From contig OZ250173.1 of the NCBI GenBank assembly GCA_965238075.1, positions 1,888,001 through 1,952,000 on the forward strand: a DNA stretch of 64,000 nt. The letters are read 5' to 3'. The notes under the pieces are model-generated. The model was not told where the DNA came from and did not search any database. It saw only the letters and a list, made by a program, of their open reading frames with translations. This document shows, piece after piece, positions 2,249 to 25,532 of the stretch (within the stretch, counting starts at the first letter, position 1; every line of letters begins with the position of its first letter). This DNA is from Candidatus Entotheonellaceae bacterium (GTDB taxonomy: Bacteria; Tectomicrobia; Entotheonellia; Entotheonellales; Entotheonellaceae). Both the position numbers and the translations under genes were made by a program.

Positions 2249-2261
2249 TGGAAGACGGCGT

Positions 2262-2621
2262 ATGGGTGACCAGCGCCTGCAATCCGTGGAACGTTTGCGG
2301 TGTCCGAGGGCCTATCGGCGGGTTTTCCAACAGGGGAAGAAGCTGTTAAGCCCTCTCTTTGTCTTCTACATCTTGCCTACCTCGCAACCCCACTCACGTT
2401 TGGGTTTGGCCGTGTCGAAACGCATTGGCTCGGCGGTGGTGCGTAATCGTGTCAAACGCCGTCTGCGCGAGGTGTTTCGCCGTCACAAGAACCTGTTGAA
2501 CCCGCACAGTGACGTCGTTGTCGTAGCTCGCAGTGCAGCGGCCAATGCGCCGGCTAGCGTCTACACGGAACAGTTTTGCGGGTTGTTGCGCGGTCGCCAG
2601 AGCGGGAGGCAAGAAGCCTGA
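2262..2621 (+). CDS. rnpA: RNase P protein component
   Basis: RLGLAVSKRIGSAVVRNRVKRRLRE motif; synteny. Confidence 0.96.
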   Translation: MGDQRLQSVERLRCPRAYRRVFQQGKKLLSPLFVFYILPTSQPHSRLGLAVSKRIGSAVVRNRVKRRLREVFRRHKNLLNPHSDVVVVARSAAANAPASVYTEQFCGLLRGRQSGRQEA

Positions 2622-2628
2622 GTTCGTG

Positions 2629-2865
2629 ATGACTAAATTGTTGATCGTTCTCATCCGGGTATACCAAAAGGCCCTGTCGCCTCTCTTTCCCCCGTCTTGC
2701 CGTTTTTATCCCAGTTGTTCCGAGTATGTCGTTCAGGCGCTGCACGCGTATGGCTTGTGGCGCGGCCTGTTGAAAGGCGCTTGGCGCGTGCTGCGGTGCC
2801 AACCCCTGTCGCGCGGCGGCGTTGATTTTCCCATCCCTGGTGGGAATCGTGTCATAGGACGTTAG
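2629..2865 (+). CDS. yidD: Membrane protein insertion efficiency factor
   Basis: CRFYPSCSEY...RVLRCQP motif; synteny. Confidence 0.95.
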   Translation: MTKLLIVLIRVYQKALSPLFPPSCRFYPSCSEYVVQALHAYGLWRGLLKGAWRVLRCQPLSRGGVDFPIPGGNRVIGR

Positions 2866-2866
2866 C

Positions 2867-4558: not shown

Positions 4559-4571
4559 GCGAGGCGGAGGC

Positions 4572-5960
4572 GTGGAAGCGTCCCGGCACGACACGATCGC
4601 CGCCATTGCTACGCCGTTAGGCGTGGGCGGGATCGGCGTGGTGCGCGTCAGTGGACCGGTCGCCGTCGCCGTGGCGCAGCGAGTATTCGTGCGGCCCAGC
4701 GGTTTGCCGCTGACACGTCTGCAATCGCACCGCGTCTATCATGGGTTCGTGGTTGATGAACAAGGTGAGCGGATCGACGAAGCGTTGCTCTGCGTCATGC
4801 GGCAGCCGCATTCCTACACGCGCGAGGACGTGGTGGAGATCAGTTGCCACGGTGGCGTGATGACCACGCAGCGCGTTCTGGAAACGGTTTTGGCGCCGGG
4901 CGTGCGGGTGGCCGAACCCGGCGAGTTTACGCGGCGGGCGTTCCTCAACGGGCGCCTCGACCTCACCCAGGCCGAGGCGGTCATCGACCTGATCAACGCC
5001 CGCACCCAGGCGAGCCATCGTGCCGCCATCAATCAACTCGACGGCGCCCTGTCCCGCCATCTCCGGGCGCTACGCGAGGAATTGATACAGGTCAGCGTCT
5101 ACCTGGAGGCGGGGATCGATTTTCCCGAAGAAGACTTGCAATTGGTCTCCGAGGCGGTCCTCTGCGAGCGATTACAGGCGGTGGCAACTCAGCTGGAAGC
5201 TCTCAGCGCCTCGTTTGCGCGTGGCCGCTTGCTGCGCGACGGCATGGCCGTCGCCGTCGTTGGCCGTCCCAACGTGGGAAAATCCAGCCTCCTGAACGCC
5301 CTGTTAGGTCGCGACCGCGCTATCGTGTCACCGCAGCCGGGCACAACGCGCGACACCATTGAAGAGGAATTGAGCATCGACGGCGTGCTGGTGCGCCTGA
5401 CGGACACCGCCGGCCTTCACACCGCGGCGGATTTGATCGAGCAGGAAGGCATGCGCCGGGCTCGCACCGTGGTTGAGCGTGCCGAATTGTTGATCGTCGT
5501 ACTCGACGGCAGCGTCACGCTGACCGCGGACGACCTTCTGGTGCTGGCCGAGACAGCGGAAGTACCGCGCCTGCTGGTACGCAACAAATGTGATCTGCCC
5601 ATGTCTTGGCCCGTCGCTGACTTGGCATTGTCGGGCGCGTTGGATCCCGTGCTTGACGTCTCGGCCTTGCGGCAACATGGCCTGCACGAACTTGAGCAGG
5701 CCATTGTGCGCCAAGCGCTGGGCAACGAGCCGCTGAGTCAGGATGAGGTGCTTCTGACCCGCGTCCGGCACCATCAGCGCATCATAAGCGCCCTGGAGAA
5801 CGTCCGCACGGCGCGGCACGGCCTGCAACACGAGATGCCGCTTGAGTGCGTGGCGCTCGACGTCGGCGAGGCGCTGCAGCACATCGCCGACGTGCTCGGG
5901 GAGAGCGTCGCGGGCGAGGTGCTGGACCGCATTTTCCATCAATTCTGCGTGGGCAAATGA
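4572..5960 (+). CDS. mnmE: tRNA modification GTPase
   Basis: DTIAAIATP, GRPNVGKSSLLN, DTAG, C-terminal FCVGK. Confidence 0.97.
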   Translation: MEASRHDTIAAIATPLGVGGIGVVRVSGPVAVAVAQRVFVRPSGLPLTRLQSHRVYHGFVVDEQGERIDEALLCVMRQPHSYTREDVVEISCHGGVMTTQRVLETVLAPGVRVAEPGEFTRRAFLNGRLDLTQAEAVIDLINARTQASHRAAINQLDGALSRHLRALREELIQVSVYLEAGIDFPEEDLQLVSEAVLCERLQAVATQLEALSASFARGRLLRDGMAVAVVGRPNVGKSSLLNALLGRDRAIVSPQPGTTRDTIEEELSIDGVLVRLTDTAGLHTAADLIEQEGMRRARTVVERAELLIVVLDGSVTLTADDLLVLAETAEVPRLLVRNKCDLPMSWPVADLALSGALDPVLDVSALRQHGLHELEQAIVRQALGNEPLSQDEVLLTRVRHHQRIISALENVRTARHGLQHEMPLECVALDVGEALQHIADVLGESVAGEVLDRIFHQFCVGK

Positions 5961-5980
5961 CCCTTGTTGAGGAGTAGGCC

Positions 5981-7909
5981 ATGCCTGTGGCATCAACAAC
6001 CCGTAGGTATGACGTGATCGTGGTGGGAGCCGGGCACGCCGGCTGCGAGGCTGCCCTGGCCGCGGCGCGCATGGGCTGCCGCACCGCCGTTTTTACCACC
6101 AACCTGGACAGCATCGCCCTGATGCCCTGCAACCCCGCCATCGGTGGCATCGCCAAAGGCCACTTGGTGCGCGAGATCGACGCCATGGGCGGCGAAATGG
6201 CCCGCTGCATCGACAAGACGGGCATCCAGTTTCGCGTTTTGAACCGCAGCAAGGGGCCTGCCGTGCGCGGCTACCGCGCTCAGGCCGACAAGCTGGGTTA
6301 CCGCCTGGAGATGAAAGCGCGGCTGGAGGCGCAAGACGGCCTGGACATCAAGCAGGCGCTGATCGAGCGCTTACTGGTCGAAGGCGACCGTGTCTGCGGC
6401 GTCGTCACCCAAATGGGCGAGACGTATCAGGCCCGAGCCATCGTGGTCAGCACCGGCACCTTTCTCGGCGGCGTCATTCACGTCGGCCTCAGGCAGTTTC
6501 CGGCCGGTCGCGCCGGGGAATTTCCGGCCAACGGGCTGTCGCAGGACTACGCCGACCACGGCTTTCCGCTGGGTCGCCTCAAAACCGGTACCTGCCCGCG
6601 CCTCAATGCCCGCACCATCGACTTTGACAGCCTGGAGGTGCAACCCGCCGACGACCCGCCGCCGCCGTTCTCATTCGACACCGAGGCGATTACCCAATCC
6701 CAATTGCCCTGCTATCTGACTTACACTAATGACCGCACGCACGACGTCATCCGGCAGAATCTCGACCGCTCGCCGCTGTACAGCGGCGTGATCATGGGTG
6801 TTGGGCCACGCTACTGCCCGTCGATCGAAGACAAGGTCAAACGCTTTCCCGACAAGACGCGGCACCAAATTTTCCTCGAACCCGAGGGCCGCGACACGGT
6901 GGAAATCTACCCGAACGGTATTTCCACCAGCCTGCCCGAAGATGTTCAGGTCGCCATGGTGCGCACGATTCGTGGGTTGGAAGAGGCCGAAGTCATGCGC
7001 CCGGGCTATGCGGTGGAGTACGACTTCGTGCCGCCCACCGAGCTGCGCCCGACCCTGGAAACCAAGCGTCTCGCCGGCCTCTACCACGCCGGGCAGATCA
7101 ACGGCACTACCGGCTACGAAGAGGCCGCGGCGCAGGGCCTGATGGCCGGCATCAACGCGGCGCTCCAGGTACGCGGGCGACCGCCGCTGGTCATCAAGCG
7201 CACCGAGGGATACGTCGGCGTCCTCATTGACGACCTGGTGACGCTGGGCACCAGCGAGCCCTACCGCATGTTTACCTCGCGCTCGGAGTACCGCCTCATC
7301 CTGCGGCAGGACAACGCCGATCTGCGGCTGCGCGACAAGGGCTATGCGGTGGGTTTGGTGCCCGAGGATACTTACCGACGCTTCTGCGACAAACGCCAGC
7401 ACATCGAAGCGGAGATTGGCCGGCTCGCCGCCTGCCGCGTGATGCCCCATGCCGGGGTCAACGACTTGCTGACGCGGCGCGGCACCGACGCGCTCAGCCA
7501 GCCGGCCTTGGCGTCGGAGTTGCTCAGGCGGCCGCAATTGACCTATACCGACGTGCTGCAACTGATGGGCGAGGCGCCCGAACTCGGCCCGGATGTGATC
7601 GAGCAGGTCGAGATCCACCTGAAGTACGAGGGCTACATTCGGCGGCAGCTCGAACAAGTCGCGCGCGTCGCGCAGCTCGAAGACATGCCGCTGCCGACCG
7701 ATTTCGATTACTGCCAAGTGCCCGGCCTGTCGCTTGAGATTCAGGAAAAGCTGCTGCACATCCGTCCGGCCTCGCTGGGACAAGCCGGGCGTATTTCCGG
7801 CGTCACGCCCGCCGCGGTGGCCATCCTCATGGTCTATTTTCAGAAGCACCGCACCTCGCATGCCCACCACCGATCAACGCCTCAGGAAGCGCCTCTGCCA
7901 GCAGTGTGA
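5981..7909 (+). CDS. mnmG: tRNA uridine 5-carboxymethylaminomethyl modification enzyme
   Basis: [37 protein letters not shown]. Confidence 0.98.
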
Positions 7910-8537
7910 GCGCCGCGGCCTCGACCTTTCCGCGGGCCAGGTTGACGCTTTGATGCGCTACCTGGAGCTTGTGTTGCAGGCGCGCCCGCACCTCAACCTC
8001 ACCGGCCTGCGCGACCCCGAACGCATCCTCGATGTGCTTATCATTGAGTCGCTCGATTTCTGCCGCCCCGATTTGATCCCCACCGCCGGGCGCGTTCTCG
8101 ACCTCGGCACCGGCGCCGGCGTGCCGGGCATGACGCTGGCCGTCTGGGGCGGCGCCCTTCATGTCACCCTCCTCGACCGCACCCGCAAGAAAATCGCCTT
8201 CGTGCGCCACGCTGCCTTGGCCCTGGGACTGCACAATTGCCACCCCGCCTGGGGTTCCGCTGAAGAACTATCCCGCCGCACGCCTCCCGACGAACGTTTC
8301 GATGCCGTCGTGGCGCGCGGCGTTGGTTCCATCGCCCACCTCATGCGACTCACCCTGCCCTTATTGCGCCCGCATGGAAAACTCCTGCTGCGCAAGCCGC
8401 CAGATAGTCCCGAGCACTGGGAAGCCGAGGCGCTTCTGGCTTCTCCCGCCTGGGCCGGCATGCGGACGTTCCCGCTGCCCGAGAACGGCGCCACGGCGTG
8501 GGTTCTGCTAGCCATTGAGCGTAGCGTCGCCGCTTGA
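7860..8537 (+). CDS. rsmG: 16S rRNA m7G527 methyltransferase
   Basis: [24 protein letters not shown]; follows mnmG. Confidence 0.92.
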
Positions 8538-8589
8538 CGCGACCTCGAATCTCCCTTTTGATGTCACAAAGGACCGCTTCTTTGTAGAT

Positions 8590-9108
8590 CTACAAAGAAC
8601 GATAAGGACGGTACGCTTCGTGTCCCGGGGCACGCAATTCGTCCCCGAGTTGGTTATAGGTGTAGTGGTACGGAGGCCCGTCGGCCTCAACCTCCACCCC
8701 CAATATCATCGGTATCCTCAACCTCTTGGCCTTTTCTTCATAAGGCAGAGATCCTTTGGCCGGGTCTATTATCCTGTCCCTTCTGTCGTACACAAAAAGG
8801 ACCGGTATCGGGGGATCAAGCCCCACCAATTCCTCCAGGTGGTCAAAAGGATCGTATTGACCCGGATGGTGTTTATATTTTCCGTAGAGTGGTGGTGCGG
8901 ACAAACCAACCGTCGCCACCAGGTGTTGCAATGGTGGGTGTTGGTAGATACTGGCCGCCACCAAGGACCCGCCACTGTGGCCATAGAGGTTAAAGAGTTC
9001 AAGAACTCATCGCTCAGATAGCGAAATAATACTCTCTGAGTCGGGATTTCGCCAGTGTCGGTAGTAGCCATGCGGTCTGTAGACCGCAATCGGATCCTCT
9101 TCCCGTTC
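8590..9108 (-). pseudogene. C-terminal part of an IS-disrupted alpha/beta hydrolase
   Basis: Reading upstream of the 124-aa ORF gives ELFNLYGHSGGSLVAAS (GxSxG elbow); shares 45 bp with the end of 10673..11140. Confidence 0.55.
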
Positions 9109-9113
9109 CCTCT

Positions 9114-10660
9114 TGCCAACTGACTGAGACACCGGGACCCCTCGGTTGAATTACTGTAGGGCGGTGGAGGTGAAAACCGATGACCGCAGAGAGAGACTCG
9201 ATGACATTGAATGAGATTCCCTATCCGTCCCTGGGGGTCGAGGAGCGTAGCGACGAGGCCCCCAGGGACGGCCGAGCCAGAGCGACGCCGGACCCGGAGG
9301 TCGTGGCCAAGCCGAAGCGGCGCCAGTTCACCGCGCAGTATCGGCTGCGGACCCTTGAGGAGGCCGATCGCTGCACACAGCCCGGCGAGGTTGGCCGCCT
9401 GCTTCGCCGCGAGGGGTTGTACAGCTCTCATCTGGCGACTTGGCGCAAGGCGCGGCGCAAGGGCTCGTTGCGGGAGTTGGCCTCGAAGAAGCGCGGCGCG
9501 AAACCGGCCGAACGCAACCCGTTGGATGCGAAGGTGCGCGTGCTCGAAGCGAAAGTGGCTCGCCTGGAACACGAGTTGCACACCGCGCACACGATCCTGG
9601 ACGTGCAGGGAAAAGTTGCCGGGCTGCTGGGATTGAACCTCGAACACGAAACGCGCTCCTGATGGCGGCCCAACCGCTGGCGGAGCAGGTCGGCGTCGTG
9701 CCGGCGTGCCAGGCGCTGGGCGTGTCGCGGGCGACTTTCTACCGTCGTCAGAGGTTAACTCCCGGGCACCAGCAGCCCCGTTCAACGCCCGCCCGGGCGC
9801 TGTGTGACTCCGAGCGCGAGCAGGTCCTCGATGTGCTCGCCTGTCCACGCTTCGTTGACCGTGCGCCGGCGGAGGTTGTGGCGACGCTGCTCGACGAAGG
9901 CCACTACCTGTGCTCGGAGCGTACGATGTATCGGATCCTGGCCACCAACCAGCCGGTCCGAGAAGGCGCAATCAGCGTGAGCATCCCCAGTACGCCAAAC
10001 CCGAACTGGTGGCCACGGCCCCGAACCAGACCTGGTCCTGGGATATCACCAAACTGCTGGGGCCGACGAAGTGGACGTACTTCTACCTCTACGTCGTGCT
10101 CGACATCTTCAGCCGCTACGCGGTCGGCTGGATGGTCGCCGACCGGGAGAACTCGGCGCTGGCCGCTTGTCTCATCGAAGAGACCTGCCACAAACAAGGC
10201 GTCCGGCCCCAGATCCTCACCTTGCACTCCGACCGCGGGGCGCCGATGACGAGCAAGTGCACCGCACAACTGCTCGCCGACCTCGGGGTCACGCGGTCGC
10301 TGAGCCGCCCCCAGGTGTCCGATGACAACCCGTTCTCCGAGGCGCAGTTCAAGACCCTGAAGTATCACCCAGGCTTCCCTGGGCGCTTTCACAACATCAC
10401 CGCCGCCATCGCCTTCTGTCGAACGTTCTTCCCTTGGTACAACACCGAGCATCGACATGGCGGCATTGCCATGCTCACCCCGGGCGACGTCCATCACCAT
10501 CGAACCCAGAGCGTGCTGCACCAGCGCCGGCGGACCCTTCAAGCCGCTTGGACCCGTCATCCCGAACGCTTCGTTCGAGGCATCCCAAAACCAGACCCCC
10601 TGCCCGAAGCGGTCTGGATCAATCCACCCGTGAGATCCACAACAGGAGAAACTGCTCAGT
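9114..10660 (+). mobile_element. IS3-family element (orfA 9180-9662; orfB from 9662, frameshifted near 9960); right IR not found
   Basis: TG-start end TGCCAACTGACTGAGACACC; orfA HTH (LLRREGLYSSHL); orfB WSWDIT...HSDRG...DNPFSEAQFKTLK DDE motif. Confidence 0.9.
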
Positions 10661-10672
10661 TCAATCCCGAAC

Positions 10673-11140
10673 TCATCGCGAAATAATACTCTCAGATTTC
10701 ATCGTTAAACGTTCAGTGTCGGTGTAGCCATGCGGTCTGTAGACCGCAATCGGATCCTCTTCCCGTTCGATGAGTCTGGCGCTGCTTAAAAAACCGGCCA
10801 GAACTTCATCGTCATACTCCGCCCGACTTTCGTCGAGGTCGCCGTCCAAAAACAAACTGGCAACCGGCTCTTGACCGGACAGGACTCGGTCCGGCATCGC
10901 TAACATCAGGGGTGCGGGTATGTCCAGCGTGGTAAAAAATTGGACGATTTTGTAACCCGGCTCAGGTCCGTCACTGACTATCTGCCAGTTGACGATAGCC
11001 TGAGTGACCGCGTCACTGTCAGAGTTATCGTAAGATGATGACGATGCACCATCTCCACCACCACCACAACCCGTCAGGACACAGAGTCCGGTGGTGGCAG
11101 TGGCACCAAGCAAAAAGTTCCGACGAGTTAATCTCAACAC
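10673..11140 (-). pseudogene. N-terminal part of a Tat-exported lipoprotein (probable hydrolase), interrupted
   Basis: TRRNFL twin-arginine motif and LTGC lipobox. Confidence 0.6.
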
Positions 11141-11813: not shown

Positions 11814-13307
11814 ATGACTGCATCTGTCACCGCTTCGATGCTCTACGATCTCGTGTCGTGTCCGCATCGGGTTGCTATGGATCTGTTCGCCGACCCCTCG
11901 GAGCGCGATGCGCCAAATCCATTCATCCAGCTCCTCTGGGAGAAAGGCTCGCTTTTCGAGAAACAGGTCATCGAAGGTCTGGAGGTGCCCTGCACCGATC
12001 TTTCCCTGGAAGCTGGCGACGAAAAGGAACGGCAGACGCTGGAGGCCATGCAGCGCGGCGATTTCATGATCTACAGCGGACGTATACAGGCTGTGGGCCT
12101 GCTCGGTGATCCGGATCTGTTGCGCAGAGAAGGTGACGGGTATATGGCTGGCGACATCAAGTCAGGTTCGGGGGAGGAAGGCCCAGAGGACCATTCAAGG
12201 CCCAAGAAGCACTACGCCGTACAGCTCGCCCTTTACACGGACATTTTGGAGCGCAAGGGCCTTTCCGCTGGCAGACGCGCCTTCGTCTGGGACATCAACG
12301 GGGAAGAAGTCGTCTACGACTTCGAGGAACTTCACGGCAAACGGAATCCGAGGACCCTCTGGCAAGACTACCAGGAGTGTCTCGGCGAAGCGAAATCAAT
12401 CGTTGATCAGGCCAGTAAGACCCTTGCTGCATACAGCAGTCTCTGCAAGCTTTGCCACTGGTACACCGCTTGCACGTCACGCCTGGTCGATGCGAACGAC
12501 CTGACGCTGATCCCCCAGTTGGGCCGCACCAGTCGCGACACCTTGATGAATCGGTTCCCGACCATCCTGTCTTTGGCCGAGTCCGATCCCGCCAACTTTG
12601 TCGTTGGTAAAAAGACTGCCTTTCCGGGGATCGGGCTTGCGACCCTGGAGAAGTTTCACGCCCGCGCGCAGCTCATCGCGGCAGGTGACAAGGCAAAGCC
12701 CTATCTCCGGGAGTCGATCACGCTGCCAGGGGCGGAGTTGGAACTCTTTTTCGATATCGAAGTCGACCCGATGCGCGACATTTGTTACCTGCACGGATTC
12801 GTTGAGCGGCGCCACCGCAACAACGAAACGGAGAGGTTCGTTGCCTTCTTTGCCGATGAACCCACTGCGGAAGCCGAACGGCAGGCCTTTGAGGAGGCGT
12901 GGTGCTACCTGCGGGAACGTCAGTCCTGCGTCATGTATTACTACTCGAAATACGAGCGGACCATCTACAGGAAACTCCGCGAGAAATACCCTGACGTGTG
13001 CACGGAGGAAGAACTGGAAGCGCTGTTCGACCCGGAGCGGTCGGTGGATCTTTATTACGACGTGGTACTCAAGGCCACCGAATGGCCGACGCGAGACTTT
13101 TCGATTAAGACGTTGGCGAGTTATCTGGGGTTTGCTTGGCGGGATCCGCATCCGTCTGGAGCGGCGTCAATTGAATGGTTTCACCGTTGGGTAGAAACGG
13201 GCGATGCAACGATTCGCCAACGAATTCTTGACTATAACGAAGACGATTGCCGGGCGACGCGCGTCCTGCGTGACGGGATTGATGGCCTTGCCTTGAAGCC
13301 GAGGTAA
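11814..13307 (+). CDS. TM0106-family RecB-like nuclease with RNase H-like C-terminal domain
   Basis: GDPDLL...GDIKS..Y.VQLALY; FFDIEVDP; SIKTLA; ILDYNEDDCRAT. Confidence 0.88.
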   Translation: MTASVTASMLYDLVSCPHRVAMDLFADPSERDAPNPFIQLLWEKGSLFEKQVIEGLEVPCTDLSLEAGDEKERQTLEAMQRGDFMIYSGRIQAVGLLGDPDLLRREGDGYMAGDIKSGSGEEGPEDHSRPKKHYAVQLALYTDILERKGLSAGRRAFVWDINGEEVVYDFEELHGKRNPRTLWQDYQECLGEAKSIVDQASKTLAAYSSLCKLCHWYTACTSRLVDANDLTLIPQLGRTSRDTLMNRFPTILSLAESDPANFVVGKKTAFPGIGLATLEKFHARAQLIAAGDKAKPYLRESITLPGAELELFFDIEVDPMRDICYLHGFVERRHRNNETERFVAFFADEPTAEAERQAFEEAWCYLRERQSCVMYYYSKYERTIYRKLREKYPDVCTEEELEALFDPERSVDLYYDVVLKATEWPTRDFSIKTLASYLGFAWRDPHPSGAASIEWFHRWVETGDATIRQRILDYNEDDCRATRVLRDGIDGLALKPR

Positions 13308-13425
13308 GCCGGATGACCGAGCTGCAGCAAACGGAGGACGCCCTATGAAATCCTTTCAACTTGTCGTCGAGCAGACCCGTCGTTCTGGATGGGCGGCGGG
13401 GTAGTTGGTTTTGGCAGTCCGATTG

Positions 13426-13459
13426 AGGCCGTCCTGAGTATCGGGACGGCCTTTTTTTT
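13426..13459 (+). terminator. Rho-independent terminator
   Basis: AGGCCGTCCTGA-GTA-TCGGGACGGCCT followed by a T-tract. Confidence 0.8.
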
Positions 13460-13548: not shown

Positions 13549-15447
13549 TCAGGCCAGACGCAGCACCAGATCTTCGGGAATCGGCAGGCGGGCGATTTGT
13601 CCGGGAAAGCCGAGTTCCTGGCGGATGACCTGAAAAAAAACGCTGTCGTGCACCTTCCGGCCTTGCAGACGACTGGCCAGCACGTCGGCGACGGCCAAGT
13701 CCCGACTGAACGTGACCAAGCCGGGGTGCGGTATGAGGTCGTAATTGCCCCACCGACTTCGGTATAGCCCGCGCCGGTTCCAGCGCACCGCGGCGTGCAG
13801 TCCTTCCACCATCCCATACATGTCGAATAGACAACCGTACAGCTTCGCCAGATCACAACAGACACGGGCAAAATGGGTCATGTTCGGACCGTGCCACGCC
13901 GTGCGCAGCACGTCCGGGATGAGGCCGAACAGATTGGCGACACTGAGGCGCGTCGGCCCCTTGAACCGTGCGAAGCTGAGGAACGGCGCGCCGCGGTGAG
14001 CCAACAGCGCTTCGGGTACATAGGCAGCCAGGGCGGGATGATGTAGCCGTACACCGGCCTCGCGCAAGATCGCCTCAATGCTTTCTTGCGGCGCGCACCG
14101 TCCGTCCCAGAAGGCTTCGGTGACATTCAGGTACTGTGCTTTGTGCTTCCGAATCACCTCTGCCAGGCCGGTGCGCCGCAGGTAGTCCGCCTCTTGCTCG
14201 GCAATCCAGGCGCGATGTTGCCGGCTGTGCTTGGCCCAATCCCATGTGGCGCCGCCGAGGTTGCGGCTCGACGTATGGCCCTCAAGGAGCACCGCCTGTC
14301 CGGGCAGGGCGCCGAGCAGCATGTCCAGGGCCACCGGGTCCGTGTACGTTCCCGGGGCGTAACCGTGCCACGTGACCTTGATGAAGACGTGCGTGGGGGA
14401 AGATGATTGCCGCAAGCGTCCGAAGAGACGGGCGAGTCCTTCCTGGTCGTAGACCTCGGCAACAAGGCCGGTGCCGTAGCACAGGTTGGCGTCCAATGGC
14501 TCGGTCAGGTCGGTGAGCGGGCAGCTTGTCTGGGGGCCGCGTAGACGGCTGACCTGTGGGCTGCGGCGCTGTTTGGCGGATGGTTCCTTGACGGCGAATT
14601 TGTCGCGTCTTTCTTGCCAGAGCCGCAGGATACGTTGCGCGAGCCATGTCAGTAGCCCAGGCGTGGCCCGGTCTCGGTCTGACGGCAGGGCAATGCTCCC
14701 GACAGGCTCCGTCGTCATCCAGGTGCGTGCGGCCGGCACCGTGCGGCTGAACTCGTCGCAGCTCGTTCGTACCTCGTCGTCGTGTGCATTGCGCCACGCC
14801 GCCTGTGGCACGATGACCCACGTCAGGTGTTCCCGCGTACAGCGTTCAAGCTGTTCCCGCAGCGAGGGCCGGGCATGGCGGCAAAATCCCACCTCGCCCC
14901 GCGCGCAACCGACTTGTTCCCATAGCAGGCGCATCAACCGGTAGCTTTGTGACCGTCCGGCGCCGGCGCCGTCACCGCTGGCGGCGAGCAGCAGGCCCAC
15001 CTGCTCGGGCTTGAGGGGCGAGCCCGCGAGCTGTTGGTACACGCGCTCCGCCCAGGCCTCGACCAACAAGGGGTGACAGGGGTCCACGTCGTCGTAGGCG
15101 ATCGTCGTCTGGGGAAATTGCTGCCGTACGCTTGCGGTAATTTCGGCCAGTTGTGCTTTTTGCACGAGGCCAAAATCAAGCATGGTGGGAATCAGGAAGA
15201 TATCGCCCCTGCGGGCTGCCGCCTCGTGGGCCAGGACCGTTGCCAGGTCGAAACGCAGCGCGGCTGACGGCTTGTCGGGCGCGCGCAGGAGGTGAGACGC
15301 GGGTGGCAGGCAGGCCAGACGGATACGCGGCGCAAAGCCGAGTTGCGGCGCCAACGGCTCCGTCAGCGCCTCGGCTTGCGCCAGGGCGGTCGGCCAGTCG
15401 GGGTGATACGCCGTCAACTCGGTGACGAGTATGAATGAGGGAGGCAT
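13549..15447 (-). CDS. Degenerate CbiX-like chelatase domain fused to a DUF362-like domain
   Basis: N-half HPLLVEAWAERV, RLMRLLWEQ...EVGF...RPSL (CbiX-like, no GHGS His); C-half VFIKV..GTYTDP, FKGPTRLSVANLFG..WHG (DUF362-like). Confidence 0.65.
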   Translation of the reverse strand: MPPSFILVTELTAYHPDWPTALAQAEALTEPLAPQLGFAPRIRLACLPPASHLLRAPDKPSAALRFDLATVLAHEAAARRGDIFLIPTMLDFGLVQKAQLAEITASVRQQFPQTTIAYDDVDPCHPLLVEAWAERVYQQLAGSPLKPEQVGLLLAASGDGAGAGRSQSYRLMRLLWEQVGCARGEVGFCRHARPSLREQLERCTREHLTWVIVPQAAWRNAHDDEVRTSCDEFSRTVPAARTWMTTEPVGSIALPSDRDRATPGLLTWLAQRILRLWQERRDKFAVKEPSAKQRRSPQVSRLRGPQTSCPLTDLTEPLDANLCYGTGLVAEVYDQEGLARLFGRLRQSSSPTHVFIKVTWHGYAPGTYTDPVALDMLLGALPGQAVLLEGHTSSRNLGGATWDWAKHSRQHRAWIAEQEADYLRRTGLAEVIRKHKAQYLNVTEAFWDGRCAPQESIEAILREAGVRLHHPALAAYVPEALLAHRGAPFLSFARFKGPTRLSVANLFGLIPDVLRTAWHGPNMTHFARVCCDLAKLYGCLFDMYGMVEGLHAAVRWNRRGLYRSRWGNYDLIPHPGLVTFSRDLAVADVLASRLQGRKVHDSVFFQVIRQELGFPGQIARLPIPEDLVLRLA

Positions 15448-15467
15448 TGTCAGGCCACCATGCGTCC

Positions 15468-16595
15468 TTACGCCGCGCCTGCCTTGGGCAAGTGGCCGGC
15501 GCGGACCAGGCAACCGAGCGTGTCACAAATCACGCGGCAGGCCATCAGAGAGGTGATCTCGGCGTTGTCGTACGGCGGTGCACACTCGACGACTTCCATG
15601 CCGGCGAAGCCCTCGGCGGCTATCAGGTGGATGAATTTCAACACCTCTCGCGGCAGAAAACCACCCGGCTCCGGCCATCCCGTGCCGGGAACAAACGCCG
15701 CGTCGAGACAGTCGATATCGAACGACAGCCACACCGCATCGGCCCCGTCCCATGCTACCTCAAGGGCGCGTTCCGCAGCTTTCTCGATTCCCATCTCGAC
15801 GCAGTCCGTGACGGTCATGATCGTTGTGCCGCGTTCCCGTGACACCTTGACCCCGGCGCGCGGCGCCTGCCAGCCGCCAATACCGATCTGCACCAGGTTT
15901 TTGGCCGGCACGTTGGGCAGGTTGGTGGCATGAAACCACGGCGTGGTGTGCATGCGTTCGTCGAGGTCCGTGTCTTGCGTGTCGACATGGCGGTCGAAGT
16001 GGATGATTCCAAGGTTGCCGCCGCCCAGATGCTCGGCGATTGCTCGTGTGGTGGGATAACCCAGCGAGTGATCGCCGCCGAGCACCACCGGAAAAGCGCC
16101 CGAAGCAAAGACGTGTCCCACGGCCTTGCTCACCTGGTCGAAGGTCTTTTCGATATTGGCGGGGATGGTGAAAATATCGCCCAGGTCGCACATGGTGATC
16201 GATTCACGCAGGTCGACGCCGAGCTCGAAGCTGTAGGAGCCGTACAGGGCGGATATTTTGCGGATGCCCTGCGGTCCGAAGCGGGCGCCGGCCCGGTACG
16301 TGGTGCCGCCGTCGAAGGGCGCCCCAACAATCGCTACGTCGTAGTTGCCGCATTGCCGCACGTCCTCAAGGAAATGTTGCTTGAGGAAGGTGTTGATGCC
16401 GGCGAAATGCGGTAATTCCCCGCGGCTGAACGTGGGTATTGACCGGTCCACGACCGAATCGGCCGCCGGCAATCCCACCTCGAGCCGCCAGGCGATTTCC
16501 TGCTCGTATTTCGTTTGCGGCAGCGCAGCTTCCGCCTCGACGGCGTAACGCGCCTCCGGACCGTGCCGCGACTGCGGTGTGGCATCCTCAGGCAT
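15468..16595 (-). CDS. gdmH: Guanidine hydrolase (arginase/ureohydrolase family, GdmH/Sll1077-type)
   Basis: DRSIPTFSRGELPHFAGINTF, HFDRHVDTQ..DLDERMHT.PWFHATN, SFDIDCLD, GWPEPGG match recalled Synechocystis Sll1077. Confidence 0.88.
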   Translation of the reverse strand: MPEDATPQSRHGPEARYAVEAEAALPQTKYEQEIAWRLEVGLPAADSVVDRSIPTFSRGELPHFAGINTFLKQHFLEDVRQCGNYDVAIVGAPFDGGTTYRAGARFGPQGIRKISALYGSYSFELGVDLRESITMCDLGDIFTIPANIEKTFDQVSKAVGHVFASGAFPVVLGGDHSLGYPTTRAIAEHLGGGNLGIIHFDRHVDTQDTDLDERMHTTPWFHATNLPNVPAKNLVQIGIGGWQAPRAGVKVSRERGTTIMTVTDCVEMGIEKAAERALEVAWDGADAVWLSFDIDCLDAAFVPGTGWPEPGGFLPREVLKFIHLIAAEGFAGMEVVECAPPYDNAEITSLMACRVICDTLGCLVRAGHLPKAGAA

Positions 16596-16631
16596 TCCTG
16601 TTCTCCTCGCTCCCAACGTGTATATCTTGTA

Positions 16632-17534
16632 TCACAACGCCTCATCACCAACGTACGTCATGCGAAAAATCGGCAAGGGCATGTCCCGGGCTTCTCCCGG
16701 CGGATGAATAAGTTCCTCCAAGCGCTGCTTGGTGGCAAAGAACGCCGGCGCCAGCAGGTGCTCGGGGCGACGCGGCCGCGGCACGGGCACCTCGATGATC
16801 TCCTTGATCGAACCGGGATTACGCCCCAGCACGACAATCCGGTCGGCCAGGTAGGTGGCTTCGTCAAGATCGTGGGTGATAAACAGAACGGTGATATTGA
16901 CGTTACGCCAGATCTGCAACAGATAACCCTGCATCTGCGCCCTGGTCTGCGCATCGAGGGCCCCGAAGGGTTCGTCCATGAGCAGAACGCGCGGCTCGTT
17001 GGCGAGGGCGCGGGCAATGGCCACGCGCTGCTGCATACCGCCCGAGAGTTGGTGTGGATAGTGGTCGATAAAGTCAGCCAGCCCCACCATGTCGATCCAC
17101 TGTCTGGCGGTTGCCTCGGCGTGCTGCGAGCTGCAGCCGGTCATGCGCAGTCCGAACATGACGTTCTTTTTCACCGTCAGCCACGGGAACAGGGTATAGC
17201 TCTGAAACACCATGCCGCGCTCTGGGCCCGGCTCCCGCACTGCTTCGCCATCCAGCAGGACCGTGCCGGCCGTCGGGGATTCCAGGCCGGCAATGATCCG
17301 GTTCAGGGTCGACTTGCCGCAGCCGGAGGGACCGATGACACAGATGAATTCGCGGCGGTGGATCTGGAAGGTGATGTCCCGGAGCGCCACCACGTCCTCG
17401 CCCTGGCTGCCGATAAAGGTCTTGTCGAGTCCCTGGACGTGCAGAATCACCGGGCGCTGCCGGATGCGGCCAAAACGCTCGCGCACCGCCGGCTCCATGT
17501 CCGTATAGCTGGGAAGTTCAAGAGGCAGCGCCAT
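16632..17534 (-). CDS. ABC transporter ATP-binding protein (NitT/TauT type, guanidine-associated)
   Basis: [24 protein letters not shown]. Confidence 0.92.
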
Positions 17535-18600
17535 CAACAGACCTCGCCTCCCGGGTGGGAGATGCGGGAACGGCGGCCGGCACCCGTCTACGGACCGCGG
17601 CGCCGAGCGTTCGAGAGAGGGTCGTCAGAAAGCCTGGGGCCCCTTGCCGCTGCGCCGGAAACATCTGGCGTCCGAACAGCCGCAGGATCTGATCGGTGCC
17701 GATCCCAAGCAGGCCGATGCTCACGATGCCGGCATAGACCCGCTCGAAATTGAAATAGCGCCCCTGCTGCTGGATATACGCCGTGATGCCGCTCTTTTCA
17801 CCGATGAGCTCCGCCACGATGAGGTACGTCCAGGCCCAGCCGAGCAGGATGCGCATGTCGATATACAGCCTGGGCAGCACACCGGGAATCACCACGTGCG
17901 TCACCAGCCGCCAGCGCCTGGCGCCGAGGGTCTGGGCGGCTTCCAGGAGCGCGGTGTCGGTCTGCCGCGTGGTGTTGGCCAGCACCAGCACCATCTGGAA
18001 GAAGGTGCCGATAAAGATGATGGCGACTTTCGGGGCTTCCTGGGTGCCGAGAATGGCGACCATCAGCGTGCCGAAGGCTGGCGCCGGCATGTAGCGAATG
18101 AAGTCGATAACCGGTTCGTTGAGCTTCGAGAACAGGGCGAACGTGCCGCACAGGACGCCCAGCGGCACGCCCAGGAGGCTCGCCCACACAAAACCCCAGA
18201 AGATAACCCGCAGGCTTTCGTAGATCCGTTGGTGGAACCATTTGTCGGTTATCCGGTTGCGCGGCGGTGTGGTGAAGACCGTGTACAGGGCGTGCAAGAC
18301 CTCATGGGGTGCCGGCAGGAACACGGGGTTGGCCGGCTGGCCCACGGCCGGCGTCTTGCCGTCTTGTAACGCCCGGGCATTCATCCGCTCCACCATCGGC
18401 GGGTCGTACCGTTTGCCCTCCAGCAGGACGGTGTCGTGAGACGCAAGGATCAAAACCTTGGGGTGCCAGACGAACGGCAGATAACTGACCGCGCACCACA
18501 CGCCGCAGGGCAGCAGGAACGCCAGGATGCTCAGCGCCAAGGCACGGCGTGGCGCGAACTCGCGTCGGACCGCCAGCCAGGGTGTTGGCGCGTGCTGCAT
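17518..18600 (-). CDS. ABC transporter permease (NitT/TauT type)
   Basis: [31 protein letters not shown]. Confidence 0.92.
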
Positions 18601-18601
18601 G

Positions 18602-19621
18602 CTACTTCTGCTTCAGGGTAAAGGTGAGGCTCGGGTCGAAGTAGCTATCCCCGGTCTCCGCCTGCGGATAGACGCCGTACTTGACGTTGAAGGTGTCGAC
18701 GTAGGCGTTCGAGCCCTTGAGGGATTTCAGCCCCGCCGATTCGTCGGCCTGCCAGACGGACAGGGCCTCGTCGAGCGACAGGATGCGCGTGCCGGCCAGA
18801 AACGGGGCGTATTCGTCGGGCGGCAGCCCGACGCGGGCACTGAGTATTTCGAGCATCTCCTCGCGGTTGGCCGGGTCCTCCATGAACGCCACGATGCGAT
18901 ACCACACCCGCACCACTTTGGCCCAGTCGCCGCCTCTTTCTGACAGGCTTTCGTGCGACACGTACAGCATATCGTAGATGATGCCGGGACTGTCCGCGCT
19001 GGAGTACAGCCGCTTCGAGCCGGGAACGATCTTGAGCGCCTGGCCCGAGTTCGGCTGCCAGGCGGTGATGGCGTCGACGCTGCCGGCTGCCAGCGCCTGG
19101 GGCAGTTCATTCGTTGGGATATTCACCAGCGTGACGTCGTTTTCGGTCATGCCGTGGGCTTCGAGGGCCGTCAGCAGCAGCAGGTGCCCGACAAAGCCGA
19201 CCTCAACGCCGACCTTTTTGCCTTTCAGGTCCGTGATCGAATCAATGCCGGGTTGGCCAACGACCATATCATTGCCGTTGGAATAGTCGTTCAGAATAAT
19301 GGCGGTTGACGGCTTGCCTGAAGCCGCCCCTATGACCAGGGCGTCGCCGTTCGTCATGCAGACGGCATCAGCCTGGCCGGCGGCGAAGGCATCCATGCCC
19401 GCTACGTAGTCCATCCACAACAACTCCACCGCGACGCCTTCCTGAGCGAAAAAGTCCTTCTGTCTGGCAATCTCCCAAGTCACCCAGCCGGGCCAGTCGC
19501 TGTAGATGAGTTTCAACGCTGGGCGATCCTCAGCTACGGCATGAGCGCCCCAGCCGGGCAGCAGGATCAAGCCCAGTAGACATAGACACAGTATCTGCCG
19601 CTTCATAGTCGCGTATGCCAT
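18602..19621 (-). CDS. ABC substrate-binding protein (guanidine/urea-carboxylase-associated type)
   Basis: Signal peptide; [23 protein letters not shown]; start uncertain. Confidence 0.88.
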
Positions 19622-19738
19622 GCGTTTTTCCACCTTCTTCGCTCCTTTGTAGACTGTGCACCGCGAGGCGGGAAACCCGACAGGCAACACGGATTGCGCC
19701 TGTATGCCTCCCGCACGAGCCCCTGTGTCACTTGATGA

Positions 19739-19773
19739 AGCAAATTAGGTGCCAAAGAGCAAACGGGATGCCA
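19739..19773 (-). promoter_or_regulatory. Two tandem sigma-54 (-24/-12) promoter motifs
   Basis: Minus strand TGGCATCCCGTTTGCT (19773-19758) and TGGCACCTAATTTGCT (19754-19739), both GG-N10-GC. Confidence 0.75.
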
Positions 19774-20069
19774 AATTCGCAAAGTCGCTGCCCGATCGGC
19801 TCGACATCCGGGACCTGTTGCCGAATGATCATCACGACTTGCAACGGGTTGGCGCTTTGACACGATCAAGTCTTTCGGCAGAGCCGGGCCGGGACCGGGG
19901 AAGAGAGCAATTCCACAAGAACGGCTTGTATCATAACATTTACGTAGGAAAGTCCACATTAAGGTTAAAATTATGCGTTCTGCCGGAGCAATCTCACGCA
20001 GACAAGCTTGCACGCCGCAAGCCTTGGCGGTCATACTGGCCGCAAATTGTCAGAAAAGGAGTTGTTCAG

Positions 20070-20927
20070 ATGTCGTTACCGGCTGCACAGGATAGGGAAG
20101 GAATGCTGTCGTTGGAGACGCCGTTCGAGGCGTTGCCGCTGGTTTGTGTGGATGTCGAGACCACTGGGTTGACGCCGGACAAGGGCGCCCGTGTTTGCGA
20201 GATTGCCTTGCTGCGCAGCGCGGGGGAGCGGGAAGTGGCGCGCTTCGAGTCGCTGGTGCATCCGCAGCAGCCGATACCGCCGGAGGTGATCGCCGTGCAC
20301 GGCATTACCGACGCCATGGTCGCCGAGGCGCCTGCCTTCACGGCCCTGCTGCCGGATATCCGTGACCTGCTGCAGGGCGCCGTCGTCGTTGGCCACAACG
20401 TGCACTTCGACCTGCGCTTCCTGCGCCACGAGTGGCGCATCGCCGGCGACGCGCTGCCGGAATGTGTCGCTATCGACACGCTTTCCTTGGCGCGTACGTA
20501 TTTCGACTTCTCCCGCAACGGCCTCGGCGCCATCGCCGCCGCCCTGGGCATCGCCCATACCGCCGCGCACCGCGCCATGGGCGACGTGCTGGCCACTTGG
20601 AACGTCCTGCAGCATTTTGTCGCGGAATTGCGCCGTCGTGGGCCGGTGACCCTGGCCGATCTGATCCTGCCGCGCGTGCCTGACGCCGCCGGCGTCGGCA
20701 TCCGCGACATGGTAACCGCCCTGCAAGACGCCCTGCCTCAGAGTGCCCCCCTGTGCATGCGCTATCGTGCTTGGCACGCCCCCGAAACCGTCCGCGTCGT
20801 GCAGCCCCTCAGCGTCTACTTCCAACGCGGTTACGGTTTCCTTCATGCCTTCTGCCACCTCCGCCGCGAGGAGCGGCACTTCCGCCTGGATCGTATCCTC
20901 GAGCTCAGCCCATTAGGTGACGAGTAG
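20070..20927 (+). CDS. DnaQ-like DEDDh 3'-5' exonuclease with C-terminal WYL domain
   Basis: VDVETTG, GHNVHFD, HRAMGD; C-terminal RVVQPL..FLHAFCHLRREERHFRLDRI; RBS AAGGAG. Confidence 0.85.
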   Translation: MSLPAAQDREGMLSLETPFEALPLVCVDVETTGLTPDKGARVCEIALLRSAGEREVARFESLVHPQQPIPPEVIAVHGITDAMVAEAPAFTALLPDIRDLLQGAVVVGHNVHFDLRFLRHEWRIAGDALPECVAIDTLSLARTYFDFSRNGLGAIAAALGIAHTAAHRAMGDVLATWNVLQHFVAELRRRGPVTLADLILPRVPDAAGVGIRDMVTALQDALPQSAPLCMRYRAWHAPETVRVVQPLSVYFQRGYGFLHAFCHLRREERHFRLDRILELSPLGDE

Positions 20928-23416: not shown

Positions 23417-23552
23417 CGGGGCGGCGAAAACTTCTTGATGTTCCCGGAGCGGCGGTGCTAGGATACGCTACCTTTAACAGCGCCTTAACAGGCGTTCTGT
23501 GTCATGCGTGGAGACCGAGACCTGGGCCGGCATCCTACGAGGGGACAACGAG

Positions 23553-25532
23553 ATGAGTGCTGCTGTGGTGTGGTTATTCGTGTTTGTGCTCCTTTATTGG
23601 ATCTATTGCATCTACTGGGGGGTGAAGGGAGCCAAAACGGCCAGGACAGCCTCGGATTACTTCATCGCCGGGCGCTCGATTCCGCTGTGGGTGTTCGTGC
23701 TTGCTGCCACCGCCACGTCATTCTCCGGCTGGACCTTCATGGGCCACCCCGGCCTCGTCTACCGCGACGGTTTCCAATACGCCTACGCCTCGTTCTACGC
23801 CATTACCATCCCGTTCACCGGCCTGATGTTCCTGAAGCGCCAATGGATGCTCGGCAAGCGCTTCGGCTACGTGACGCCGGGTGAAATGTACGCCGATTAC
23901 TTCCGCTCCGACCTGATGCGCATCCTCACCGTCTTGGTGGCTCTGATATTTTCCGTGCCCTACCTCGGGGTGCAGCTGCGAGCCTCCGGCTTCCTGTTCA
24001 ACGTCCTCACCGACAATCTGTTCCCCGTCTGGCTCGGCATGTGGCTGCTGTCGCTGGTCGTCATCGTTTACGTCGCCTCGGGCGGCCTGCGGGCGGTAGC
24101 CTACGTGGATACGGTGCAGTGCGTCCTGCTGGCACTGGGTATCACGGCCATCGGGCTGATCACCCTGAGCTACGTCGGCGGTTTCGGCGCCCTGAACGAG
24201 GGCATCGCCAAGCTGGCGGAGATCGACAGCAAGCGCACGCCGGCGGGATACAGCCACTACATCGCCATACCAGGGGTCATCCAGTTCGTGAAGTCGGGGC
24301 CGAGCGCCGTCGGCGGCGCCTGGACGGGGATCATGATTCTCACGTACATGTTCGCGCTCATGGGTATTCAGTCGGCGCCGGCGTTCTCGATGTGGTCATT
24401 TTCCAACCGTAACCCGCGCCCCTTCGCGCCGCAGCAGGTGTGGGCGTCGTCGTTCGGTATCGGCTTCATCCTGATCGTCTTCACGGCCATCCAGGGCATG
24501 GGGGCGCACTTGTTGGGGGCTGACAAGGCGATGCTGGACGCCGTGCAGGCGGCGCAGGCGGCGGGGCAACCCGCCGGGTTTGCCAGCGATGTGCTGAAGC
24601 TGGGCGGCGACATCATGGAAATGCCGGGCAAACAGGGTTTCCTGGTGCCGGTGTTGATTCGCCTGATGAGCGACGTGGCGCCGTGGCTCGTGGGTCTGCT
24701 GGCAGTGTGCGCCCTGGCGGCGATGCAGTCGACCGGTGCGGCCTACATGTCTACGGCGGCCGGCATGCTGACGCGCGATCTGTACAAGCGCTTCTTCAAC
24801 CCCGATGCGTCGCATGAGTCGCAGAAACTGCTCGGGCGTATCGGCGTGGTGGTGATTACGATTCTGGCCCTGGTGGTGGCGACCACCTCGCGCGATGCCC
24901 TGGTGCTGCTCGGCGGCCTGGCAGTGGCGTACGGCTTCCAGATGTGGCCGGCGCTGATCGCCACCTGCTGGTGGCCGTGGCTGACGCGGCAGGGGGTCAC
25001 GGTAGGGCTCATCGCCGGCATCATTGCAGTGACGCTCACCGAGTCGATCGGCCAACAATGGTTCGGCATCACCGCATGGGGCAGATGGCCGCTGACCATT
25101 CACTCGGCGGGTTGGGGCCTGATCTTCAACCTCGGCCTGGCCATCCTGATTTCGCTTGTAACGCAAAGCCGCGAAGGGACCGAGCATCGCATGCGGTTCC
25201 ACAGCTTCCTGAAAGAACACGCCGGCCTGCCCGAGGCCAAGAAACCCCTGATTCCCTGGGCCTGGGGCATCACGATTGCCTGGTTCTTCTTCGGCATCGG
25301 GCCGGGGGCCGTCATCGGCAACACGATTTTCGGCAACCCGAACGACGCCGCCACGTGGATATTCGGCATACCCTCCATCTGGGCCTGGCACATCTTGTGG
25401 TGGGCGCTGGGCGTCGGCATGATGTGGTTCCTGGCCTACAAGATGCAGATGTCCACGGTGCCGGATCAGGAGGTCGTGGCGCTGGTGGAAGACATCGGCG
25501 ACGTGAAGGTTCCAGAGGCCGCGTCGGACTAG
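23553..25532 (+). CDS. Sodium:solute symporter family protein
   Basis: DYFIAGRS, SGWTFMGHPG, GGLRAVAYVD, many TM segments. Confidence 0.92.
   Translation: MSAAVVWLFVFVLLYWIYCIYWGVKGAKTARTASDYFIAGRSIPLWVFVLAATATSFSGWTFMGHPGLVYRDGFQYAYASFYAITIPFTGLMFLKRQWMLGKRFGYVTPGEMYADYFRSDLMRILTVLVALIFSVPYLGVQLRASGFLFNVLTDNLFPVWLGMWLLSLVVIVYVASGGLRAVAYVDTVQCVLLALGITAIGLITLSYVGGFGALNEGIAKLAEIDSKRTPAGYSHYIAIPGVIQFVKSGPSAVGGAWTGIMILTYMFALMGIQSAPAFSMWSFSNRNPRPFAPQQVWASSFGIGFILIVFTAIQGMGAHLLGADKAMLDAVQAAQAAGQPAGFASDVLKLGGDIMEMPGKQGFLVPVLIRLMSDVAPWLVGLLAVCALAAMQSTGAAYMSTAAGMLTRDLYKRFFNPDASHESQKLLGRIGVVVITILALVVATTSRDALVLLGGLAVAYGFQMWPALIATCWWPWLTRQGVTVGLIAGIIAVTLTESIGQQWFGITAWGRWPLTIHSAGWGLIFNLGLAILISLVTQSREGTEHRMRFHSFLKEHAGLPEAKKPLIPWAWGITIAWFFFGIGPGAVIGNTIFGNPNDAATWIFGIPSIWAWHILWWALGVGMMWFLAYKMQMSTVPDQEVVALVEDIGDVKVPEAASD

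Follow-up and report, generated by a model that had tools for sequence, protein, structure and literature searches.

Guanidine is now recognised as a genuine source of nitrogen and, in comammox, also of energy. Few nickel enzymes are known besides urease and hydrogenase, and guanidine hydrolase is one of them; to our knowledge, the sole known route for loading it with nickel is the HypA/HypB-like pair GhaA/GhaB (GhaAB). According to the accessible portions of two reports, GdmH is co-encoded with the nickel delivery proteins GhaA and GhaB and relies on them (PMC12704784, PMC12186494), and those of a third state that the nickel-dependent ureohydrolases MefH and DmgH (metformin and dimethylguanidine hydrolases) rely on co-expressed HypA/HypB (PMC11399263). 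The accessible text of the comammox study describes nickel loading as unexplained where GhaAB-type chaperones are missing (PMC11410670). Here we present a guanidine operon from Candidatus Entotheonellaceae bacterium in which the gene following the guanidinase gene encodes a protein of 632 amino acids (aa), a fusion of a CbiX-like and a DUF362-like domain. It is located in a stretch of 64,000 nucleotides (nt), called the window in the following (assembly GCA_965238075.1, OZ250173.1 positions 1,888,001 to 1,952,000, forward strand). As a guanidine operon the locus is of a known kind; new in it is an accessory gene that is widespread and unstudied. The accessible portions of the four publications cited above do not mention CbiX or DUF362, and our full-text literature search found no published link between guanidinase and a partner of the CbiX/sirohydrochlorin type.

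The operon consists of five open reading frames (ORFs) located head to tail on the minus strand. They encode the substrate-binding protein (SBP) of an NMT1/SsuA-type ATP-binding cassette (ABC) importer (18605-19690; Pfam NMT1, 1.7e-20), an ABC permease (17521-18600; BPD_transp_1, 1.3e-23), an ABC ATPase (16635-17537; ABC_tran, 2e-35), a GdmH-type ureohydrolase of 382 aa (15471-16616, stop codon TAA at 15468-15470) and the 632-aa protein (13552-15447, stop codon at 13549-13551). This gene order, including the position of the last ORF 20 nt downstream of the guanidinase gene, is as the original prediction had described it. The 20 nt separate the guanidinase stop (15470-15468) from the ATG at 15447, which is preceded at a distance of 5-6 nt by the sequence GGTGG. 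An in-frame TTG at 15513 would lengthen the protein by 22 residues; since the alignments of homologues begin at residue 1-5 of the shorter form, we favour the ATG. The importer is likely to serve guanidine uptake, and SBPs 53-68% identical to the one in the window are present in fusion-bearing operons of other phyla. The best NCBIfam matches of SBP and ATPase, TIGR03427 'ABC_peri_uca' (155 bits) and an ntrCD-like model, are both under the model cut-offs. The SBP probably starts at the methionine codon at 19621.

By similarity, the arginase-family gene is a guanidinase, and Ni(II)-dependent hydrolysis of guanidine is predicted for its product. The protein matches the guanidinase of N. inopinata (9FEK) with an E-value of 1.2e-209 and Synechocystis GdmH (7ESR/7OI1) with 2.9e-169, and the next relative in the PDB after the characterised guanidinases follows at 3.8e-50. 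The arginase/ureohydrolase fold domain is present, with the Pfam Arginase match (PF00491, E 5.4e-79) spanning 278 of 280 profile positions, and the protein is under every cut-off of the NCBIfam models for agmatinase, arginase and formimidoylglutamase (hutG). The motifs FDxGTTYR (containing T106) and GTGWPEPGG (containing W314) are invariant in all 13 aligned sequences. In Synechocystis GdmH the specificity residues are Thr97 and Trp305, as given in the accessible part of the comammox study (PMC11410670), and mapping via the sequence alignment with 9FEK suggests that T106 and W314 are their equivalents. A tblastn search found the operon guanidinase to be the sole arginase-family gene in the 3.35-Mb single-contig genome. 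Since this genome also encodes a urease alpha subunit and UreG, the path from guanidine via urea to ammonia is complete.

The gene for the 632-aa protein is tightly linked to guanidinase genes. A scan of one genome per species revealed 77 loci encoding a member of the family, and in 71 of these its gene is directly preceded by a guanidinase match on the same strand. If a high-scoring segment pair is required to span at least 300 aa and to end no more than 600 nt away, 66 loci remain. For 56 loci the distance between the two genes was inferred; its median is 14 nt and its range -25 to 268. The family is spread over at least nine phyla and was found in Tectimicrobiota, Binatota, Poribacteria, Acidobacteriota, Latescibacterota, Myxococcota, Verrucomicrobiota and Planctomycetota as well as in unclassified metagenome-assembled genomes; one carrier, Singulisphaera acidiphila DSM 18658 (L028), is a cultured organism. 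Two of the loci without an upstream match (L026, L063) are on contigs that begin inside the fusion gene, and a third (L006) is on a 4.4-kb contig with other genes upstream. In L033 and L065 the pair is unlinked, and the guanidinase gene of the genome is on another contig or 35 kb away. The Latescibacterota locus L066 (7286-8906) encodes only the C-terminal half (residues 324-627) directly after an SBP gene, with neither guanidinase nor N-terminal half, and looks like a deletion remnant.

The remaining neighbours are not conserved: ABC transporter, OprB porin, SSF transporter, metallo-beta-lactamase and urease (accessory) genes are present in some loci only. About five loci (for instance L023:6811-8322 and L065:9688-11127) have a gene for such a sodium:solute symporter (SSF) after the fusion gene, and these proteins may be urea or guanidine carriers; a 677-aa SSF protein is also encoded in the window at 23499-25529, 4 kb from the operon. 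In Bryobacterales loci (L019:2288-3806, L022:6174-6833) ureF, ureD and ureG are located directly upstream of the guanidinase-fusion pair, showing that the pair is kept even where the genes for urease nickel chaperones adjoin.

Co-occurrence was determined in samples in which guanidinase was searched independently, around seed genomes (G000, G001, G002, G005) that had been picked as carriers. In the order of G002 (Bryobacterales-type), 9 of 151 genomes encode a guanidinase and the same 9 encode the C-terminal domain of the 632-aa protein, with the genes adjacent in seven, 35 kb apart in one and on two small contigs in one. The order of G005 (Myxococcota; 151 genomes) contains two genomes with guanidinase, and the same two have the C-terminal domain gene adjacent. 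The 17 genomes of the phylum of the window comprise five with guanidinase; four of them, all from the genus of the window, have the C-terminal domain encoded next to it. The Planctomycetota sample (301 genomes), in which two genomes including the pair-carrying G001 have a guanidinase, is too sparse to be useful. Thus, the linkage of homologues to gdmH that the original prediction had made its test is strong across loci, and co-occurrence is perfect in the two order-level samples. Two runs of complex prediction with guanidinase residues 20-382 and the full 632-aa protein, made with no controls, gave a score of 0.00, which counts neither way.

This distribution bears on the question whether the gene merely hitch-hikes with guanidinase and has an unrelated function, for example metal insertion into tetrapyrroles. 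Some database annotations name the protein 'sirohydrochlorin ferrochelatase' or CbiX, and the N-terminal domain indeed has a chelatase fold. However, the pair is kept across the phyla while other neighbours vary, none of the 319 genomes in which both genes were searched has the fusion without a guanidinase, tetrapyrrole genes were not found in the neighbourhood and the chelatase His positions are not conserved (see below). Such an accident is therefore very improbable.

The 632-aa protein was modelled with AlphaFold2 on 68 family sequences, with a mean predicted local distance difference test (pLDDT) value of 88.3. Structural comparison of both halves resulted in a class II chelatase (SirB/CbiX/HemH) fold for residues 1-284 (14596-15447) and a divergent DUF362/LarA-N-terminal-type fold for residues 328-632 (13552-14466). 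They are joined by a basic, poorly conserved linker (residues 285-327; 14467-14595), in which residues 287-296 form a disordered stretch with pLDDT below 50; mean pairwise identity across residues 281-340 is 35%.

The N-terminal domain is most similar to HemH/CpfC (VIA Z 21.8) and SirB (5ZT7; Z 21.6 over 246 residues with a root-mean-square deviation (rmsd) of 2.8), followed by CbiK (Z 19.4) and CbiX (4CCS; Z 18.9). The nickelochelatase CfbA matches one lobe only (residues 149-276; Z 12.5). Foldseek found SirB with an E-value of 7e-8, and SirB crystallised with Ni2+ (5ZT9) is among its matches. A CbiX-like fold, as originally proposed, is also visible in profile comparisons: Pfam CbiX matches the N-terminal half with 31 bits (cut-off 22) as well as 54 of the 68 family members, and the family profile finds SirB at E 5e-5. 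A search of the PDB with the single sequence gave no matches. The domain (residues 1-280) has a mean pairwise identity of 44%, with 17 columns at least 95% identical. The claim that it lacks the catalytic His motifs turned out to be mostly right. The positions taken to be metal-binding and catalytic in SirB and CbiK are not conserved in the family: a His occupies position 159 in 28 of 68 sequences, the window protein having Asp there, and position 222 in 34 of 68, the window protein among them. In the profile alignment a hydrophobic residue of the N-terminal lobe is aligned to a SirB His. The His residues that are kept are only H191 (64/68) and H125 (58/68).

The C-terminal domain resembles in the full-length model an uncharacterised Thermotoga protein (4NAR; Z 11.3) and enzymes of the LarA family of nickel-pincer enzymes, namely malate racemase (7S91; Z 10.8), 9EIA and 9Q3J (both Z 10.3) and LarA itself (5HUQ; Z 10.1 over 209 residues, chain range 34-270 only). 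Between 197 and 209 residues align onto the N-terminal part of these LarA-type enzymes. Pfam Lar_N matches neither the protein nor its halves, and the full two-domain LarA architecture is absent. Direct evidence for DUF362 (PF04015) is below the threshold for the C-terminal half of the window protein (13.3 bits, E 0.087, cut-off 24); seven of the 68 family members match at E <= 1, the best with 0.0048, and hhalign against one canonical Fe-S-type DUF362 subfamily gave weak E-values of 0.074 and 0.036. The connection is made by intermediates. A search of 1.84 billion representatives with the domain profile yielded 222 proteins at E <= 0.001, including stand-alone relatives of about 300-350 aa at E 1e-56 to 1e-25. 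Pfam assigns 26 of the 28 stand-alone relatives tested to DUF362 at E <= 0.01, 23 of them above the cut-off. The accessible part of PMC11770544 places DUF362 and the LarA N-terminal family in the same Pfam clan, CL0471. Since the stand-alone relatives are DUF362 proteins and the LarA N-terminal family shares their clan, the initial label of a CbiX-DUF362 fusion is right. ESM Atlas does not contain the exact window sequence; searched with the homologue P0006, it returned only the clusters of the family itself and a lead to DUF362 at 0.76, and looking up the clusters of the stand-alone relatives did not yield informative names or taxa. A longer form fused to guanidinase is not present among the 150 best representatives (the longest has 638 aa), no dedicated search for longer forms having been made. 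The accessible literature that mentions DUF362, PF04015, COG2006 or COG2768 gives no function. Elsewhere, the genome encodes a canonical Cys-rich DUF362 protein of 476 aa, a LarA-type protein (Lar_N E 1.4e-51) and two matches of LarC type (Ni_insertion); the matches of these types are located at G000:C1:655166-656041 (L164), 1488404-1488985 (L165), 1407089-1407805 and 1767396-1768481.

Conservation is far higher in this domain (residues 341-632) than in the N-terminal one, with a mean pairwise identity of 63% and 87 columns at least 95% identical. The motifs TWHG, EGHT, WHG and VCC, which had been noticed in the window protein, are present and conserved across the 68 sequences: H361 and H519 are found in 68, H391 in 66 and C530 and C531 in 67 each, and C451 is near-invariant. 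Two groups of residues can be distinguished. K357, E389, E444, K496, H519, D532, E548 and D588 are shared with the stand-alone DUF362-like relatives, and two of them, K496 and H519, are invariant in the 632-aa family; LarA features a cofactor-tethering Lys and a His as nickel ligand. Fixed in the guanidinase-linked family only are H361, C451, R500, the C530-C531 pair, R563 and R565, and H361, C451 and C530-C531 are absent from the stand-alone relatives.

The enzyme-like conservation across phyla, the polar residues common with stand-alone DUF362-like proteins and the LarA-family enzymes as structural neighbours could also point to a second pathway enzyme. The DUF362/LarA-type domain of the protein, possibly with a bound cofactor such as the nickel-pincer nucleotide, would then make guanidine from a guanidino precursor or process a side product, and the protein would be of use only in the presence of guanidinase. 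LarC is encoded in the genome of the window and in all five other carrier genomes tested, which would fit a pincer cofactor; but 148 of the 151 genomes of the sampled order have LarC, and the co-occurrence is thus uninformative. The LarA alignment is restricted to the N-terminal part and Lar_N is missing. No additional gene of such a pathway varies together with the pair, the motifs bearing the guanidine-specificity residues are retained in the guanidinases, and the same genomes, at times even the same loci, already provide urease for the urea. We consider a second enzyme, the alternative named in the original prediction, rather unlikely.

HypA was not found in the window by the Pfam survey, as the original prediction had noted, nor in the whole genome (one contig, 93% complete). 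The genome has two strong matches to the CobW family, UreG and a CobW-like GTPase, with two weaker matches beside them. The original prediction had asked whether the fusion excludes hypAB: HypA is absent from this genome and was not found in three of five other carriers, and in the other two it is present at a distance from the guanidinase gene, 200 kb off or on another contig. The reading that we favour, tentatively and with a probability just short of even, is that the 632-aa protein is a GTPase-free maturation or metal-centre factor of guanidinase, occupying the operon slot of GhaA/GhaB. We favour it because the gene has a GhaAB-like position, HypA is missing, nickel-handling proteins are among the relatives of both folds and the His/Cys pocket, specific to the family, is consistent with metal binding. 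The relatives, CfbA for the N-terminal domain and the nickel-pincer enzymes for the C-terminal one, were identified by comparison with the predicted model and would support nickel handling.

According to this maturation reading, the ABC transporter would import guanidine, guanidinase would hydrolyse it to urea and ammonium, and urease would take the urea. The 632-aa protein would be made from the same transcript as guanidinase, and the pocket of its LarA-type/DUF362 domain (H361, H391, C451, H519, C530-C531) would bind Ni(II). The chelatase-fold domain, having lost the conserved His residues, might be a docking module or a second metal-handling module. Nickel could then be passed to apo-guanidinase without a GTPase, and the dinuclear Ni(II) centre would be built or kept. 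That the protein binds nickel, contacts guanidinase and passes the metal on is presumed. It is also conceivable, yet doubtful, that the family represents a new class of nickel-enzyme maturases, whose single GTPase-free polypeptide would join a degenerate tetrapyrrole-chelatase fold to a LarA-type fold bearing a Cys-Cys/His pocket and would build the dinickel site of guanidinase.

Several observations weigh against a maturation factor. The known nickel insertion systems cited here use GTPases (HypB, UreG), and Pfam detected no NTPase domain in the fusion. The chelatase His positions are not kept, the conservation of the C-terminal domain, with its residues common to stand-alone DUF362, is that of an enzyme, and no nickel transporter is a conserved neighbour of the pair. 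The guanidinase of N. inopinata is active without a known chaperone, though under-loaded with nickel, according to the accessible part of the study (PMC11410670). In addition, guanidinases exist without the partner. A scan of metagenomes with the guanidinase alignment, from which the 80 loci most like the window enzyme were kept (74-86% identity), found the fusion in none of them, and 51 of these loci have at least 1,500 nt downstream. The Planctomycetota genome G006, a small one, encodes two tandem guanidinase paralogues after SBP, permease and ATPase genes (L167, G006:C1, 8499-10777, minus strand; 64% and 58% identical to the window enzyme), and no fusion was found in the whole genome. In G616, which belongs to the family of the window and to another genus (89% complete), the fusion was not found either; its guanidinase gene is on an intact 17-kb contig and is followed by a convergent ABC transporter. 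The reading of a metal-delivery or maturation factor put forward in the original prediction is therefore partly supported: tight linkage and the absence of HypA speak for it, whereas the closest guanidinases, G006 and G616 manage without the protein.

The metagenome loci contain other genes instead, with an APC permease in 26, NMT1-type ABC genes, and an oligopeptide/nickel-type ABC system in six; clusters of HypA-/HypB-like genes did not appear in any of the 80. The last-named system, seen at L156:2955-5123 and in five more loci, comprises a double ATPase with oligo_HPY domain and BPD_transp_1_N permeases beside fusion-less guanidinases, and is a possible nickel supply route. The tandem paralogues of G006 recall the heteromeric metformin/dimethylguanidine hydrolases.

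The window guanidinase falls into the same clade as these 80 enzymes. In a FastTree phylogeny of 153 guanidinases, rooted on an agmatinase paralogue, it forms one starred clade with those of three Entotheonella relatives, L004 and L005, nested in an otherwise fusion-less clade A; all remaining fusion-linked guanidinases make up clade B. The tree of the C-terminal domain recovers the modules of the same six clade A loci as one starred clade. Because both trees recover these six, we conclude that the pair has been inherited as a module. The protein needs guanidinase but guanidinase does not need the protein, which is the pattern of a dedicated accessory factor with other solutions existing. The 632-aa protein is thus a guanidinase-dependent accessory and not a universal requirement.

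Loci with and without the fusion also differ in their riboswitches. The guanidine-I riboswitch (RF00442) was found in eight of 13 fusion-less loci scanned (e.g. L142:664-768 and L147:4852-4951, within L084-L163), and was detected neither in the eight fusion-bearing loci scanned nor in the window. Partner gene and riboswitch control look anti-correlated, though the contrast may reflect taxonomy only. If real, it may indicate another substrate or signal, as expected for a second enzyme, or it may mean that the protein is a non-catalytic partner of guanidinase: a post-translational on/off regulator or sensor replacing riboswitch control, or a stabilising subunit of the hexamer. Such a partner would agree with the short gap between the genes and with the requirement of related nickel-dependent ureohydrolases for a second, inactive subunit, reported in the accessible text of PMC11399263. 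The N-terminal domain also resembles ligand-binding domains of the PBP/LacI type, but these matches (Z 8-9, rmsd above 5.8 Å) are far weaker than those to chelatases. Moreover, the His/Cys pocket, which is invariant, and the large number of fixed polar residues suggest metal or small-molecule chemistry more than scaffolding alone, and a non-catalytic role appears improbable.

Next to the operon, a gene for a PD-(D/E)XK/RNase_H-like protein (11814-13304, plus strand) is convergent to it and a gene for an RNase_T-WYL protein (19749-20924) is divergent from it. Both are unrelated, and the unit therefore consists of five genes. A 13-bp GC-rich hairpin is located between the convergent gene ends at 13425-13453. 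It was reported as a terminator-like site on the plus strand and is possibly a two-way terminator, which the minus-strand operon might use as well. No Rfam family reaches the gathering score anywhere in the window, and a scan of 19400-20000 at E <= 10 gave a chance-level match to narK only. Metatranscriptome libraries (four runs from two studies) contain contigs of a close, near-identical strain that extend over the operon, three of which span the junction between guanidinase and fusion. Since contigs of 10-11 kb may be carried-over DNA and a contig is not a transcript, they count only as present in RNA libraries. In three of the four runs (X10, X11 and X13), contigs have a 10-nt insertion behind window position 19657, in the extended 5´ region of the SBP ORF upstream of the probable start at 19621. 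The window begins with a replication-origin gene set (dnaA, rnpA, yidC, mnmE, mnmG and rsmG), which within the region 825-10683 is followed by an rve-type integrase (9910-10683). The integrase and a dip in GC content (0.57-0.59 at 10-14 kb) are located just ahead of the operon, which may sit on an acquired segment; an IS110 transposase is encoded at 48135-49169.

The 632-aa family is a concrete candidate for an alternative route of nickel loading of guanidinase and provides a first functional handle on the DUF362-type domain. If the reading of a new maturase class is true, DUF362-type domains would gain a first function, in metal or metallocofactor handling, and the maturation of nickel-dependent ureohydrolases in many phyla without adjoining HypA/HypB would be explained. 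Since comammox loci lack the protein, their nickel loading would stay unsolved. For biotechnology, such as guanidine-based biofertilisers and ethylene-producing strains, the activity of a guanidinase in a heterologous host may hinge on co-expression of the right accessory gene.

Compared with known systems, the operon combines familiar and new parts. The genes for GhaA/GhaB, and for HypA/HypB in metformin hydrolase operons, adjoin those of the nickel-dependent ureohydrolases and are co-transcribed with them, as described in the accessible portions of PMC12704784 and PMC11399263. Like GhaA/GhaB, the 632-aa gene occupies the slot directly after guanidinase; unlike them, its product has no sequence or fold relation to these chaperones and matches neither PF01155 (HypA) nor PF02492 (CobW/HypB). 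Instead of a pair of proteins it is one polypeptide, combining a chelatase with a LarA-type fold. Residues 1-284 share the two-lobed fold of the class II chelatases (SirB, CbiX, CbiK and HemH, with CfbA matching a single lobe), whereas the metal-ligand His positions of these enzymes are not conserved and the tetrapyrrole gene context is missing. Similarly, the C-terminal domain superposes on the N-terminal part of LarA-type enzymes and has DUF362 proteins as stand-alone relatives, but the CC pair and H361 are peculiar to the family linked to guanidinase, and the window protein is under the DUF362 cut-off and without Lar_N. Finally, in contrast to the context of Synechocystis GdmH and the N. 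inopinata guanidinase, the operon encodes no GhaAB and no APC permease and has no guanidine-I riboswitch; it contains the fusion gene instead.

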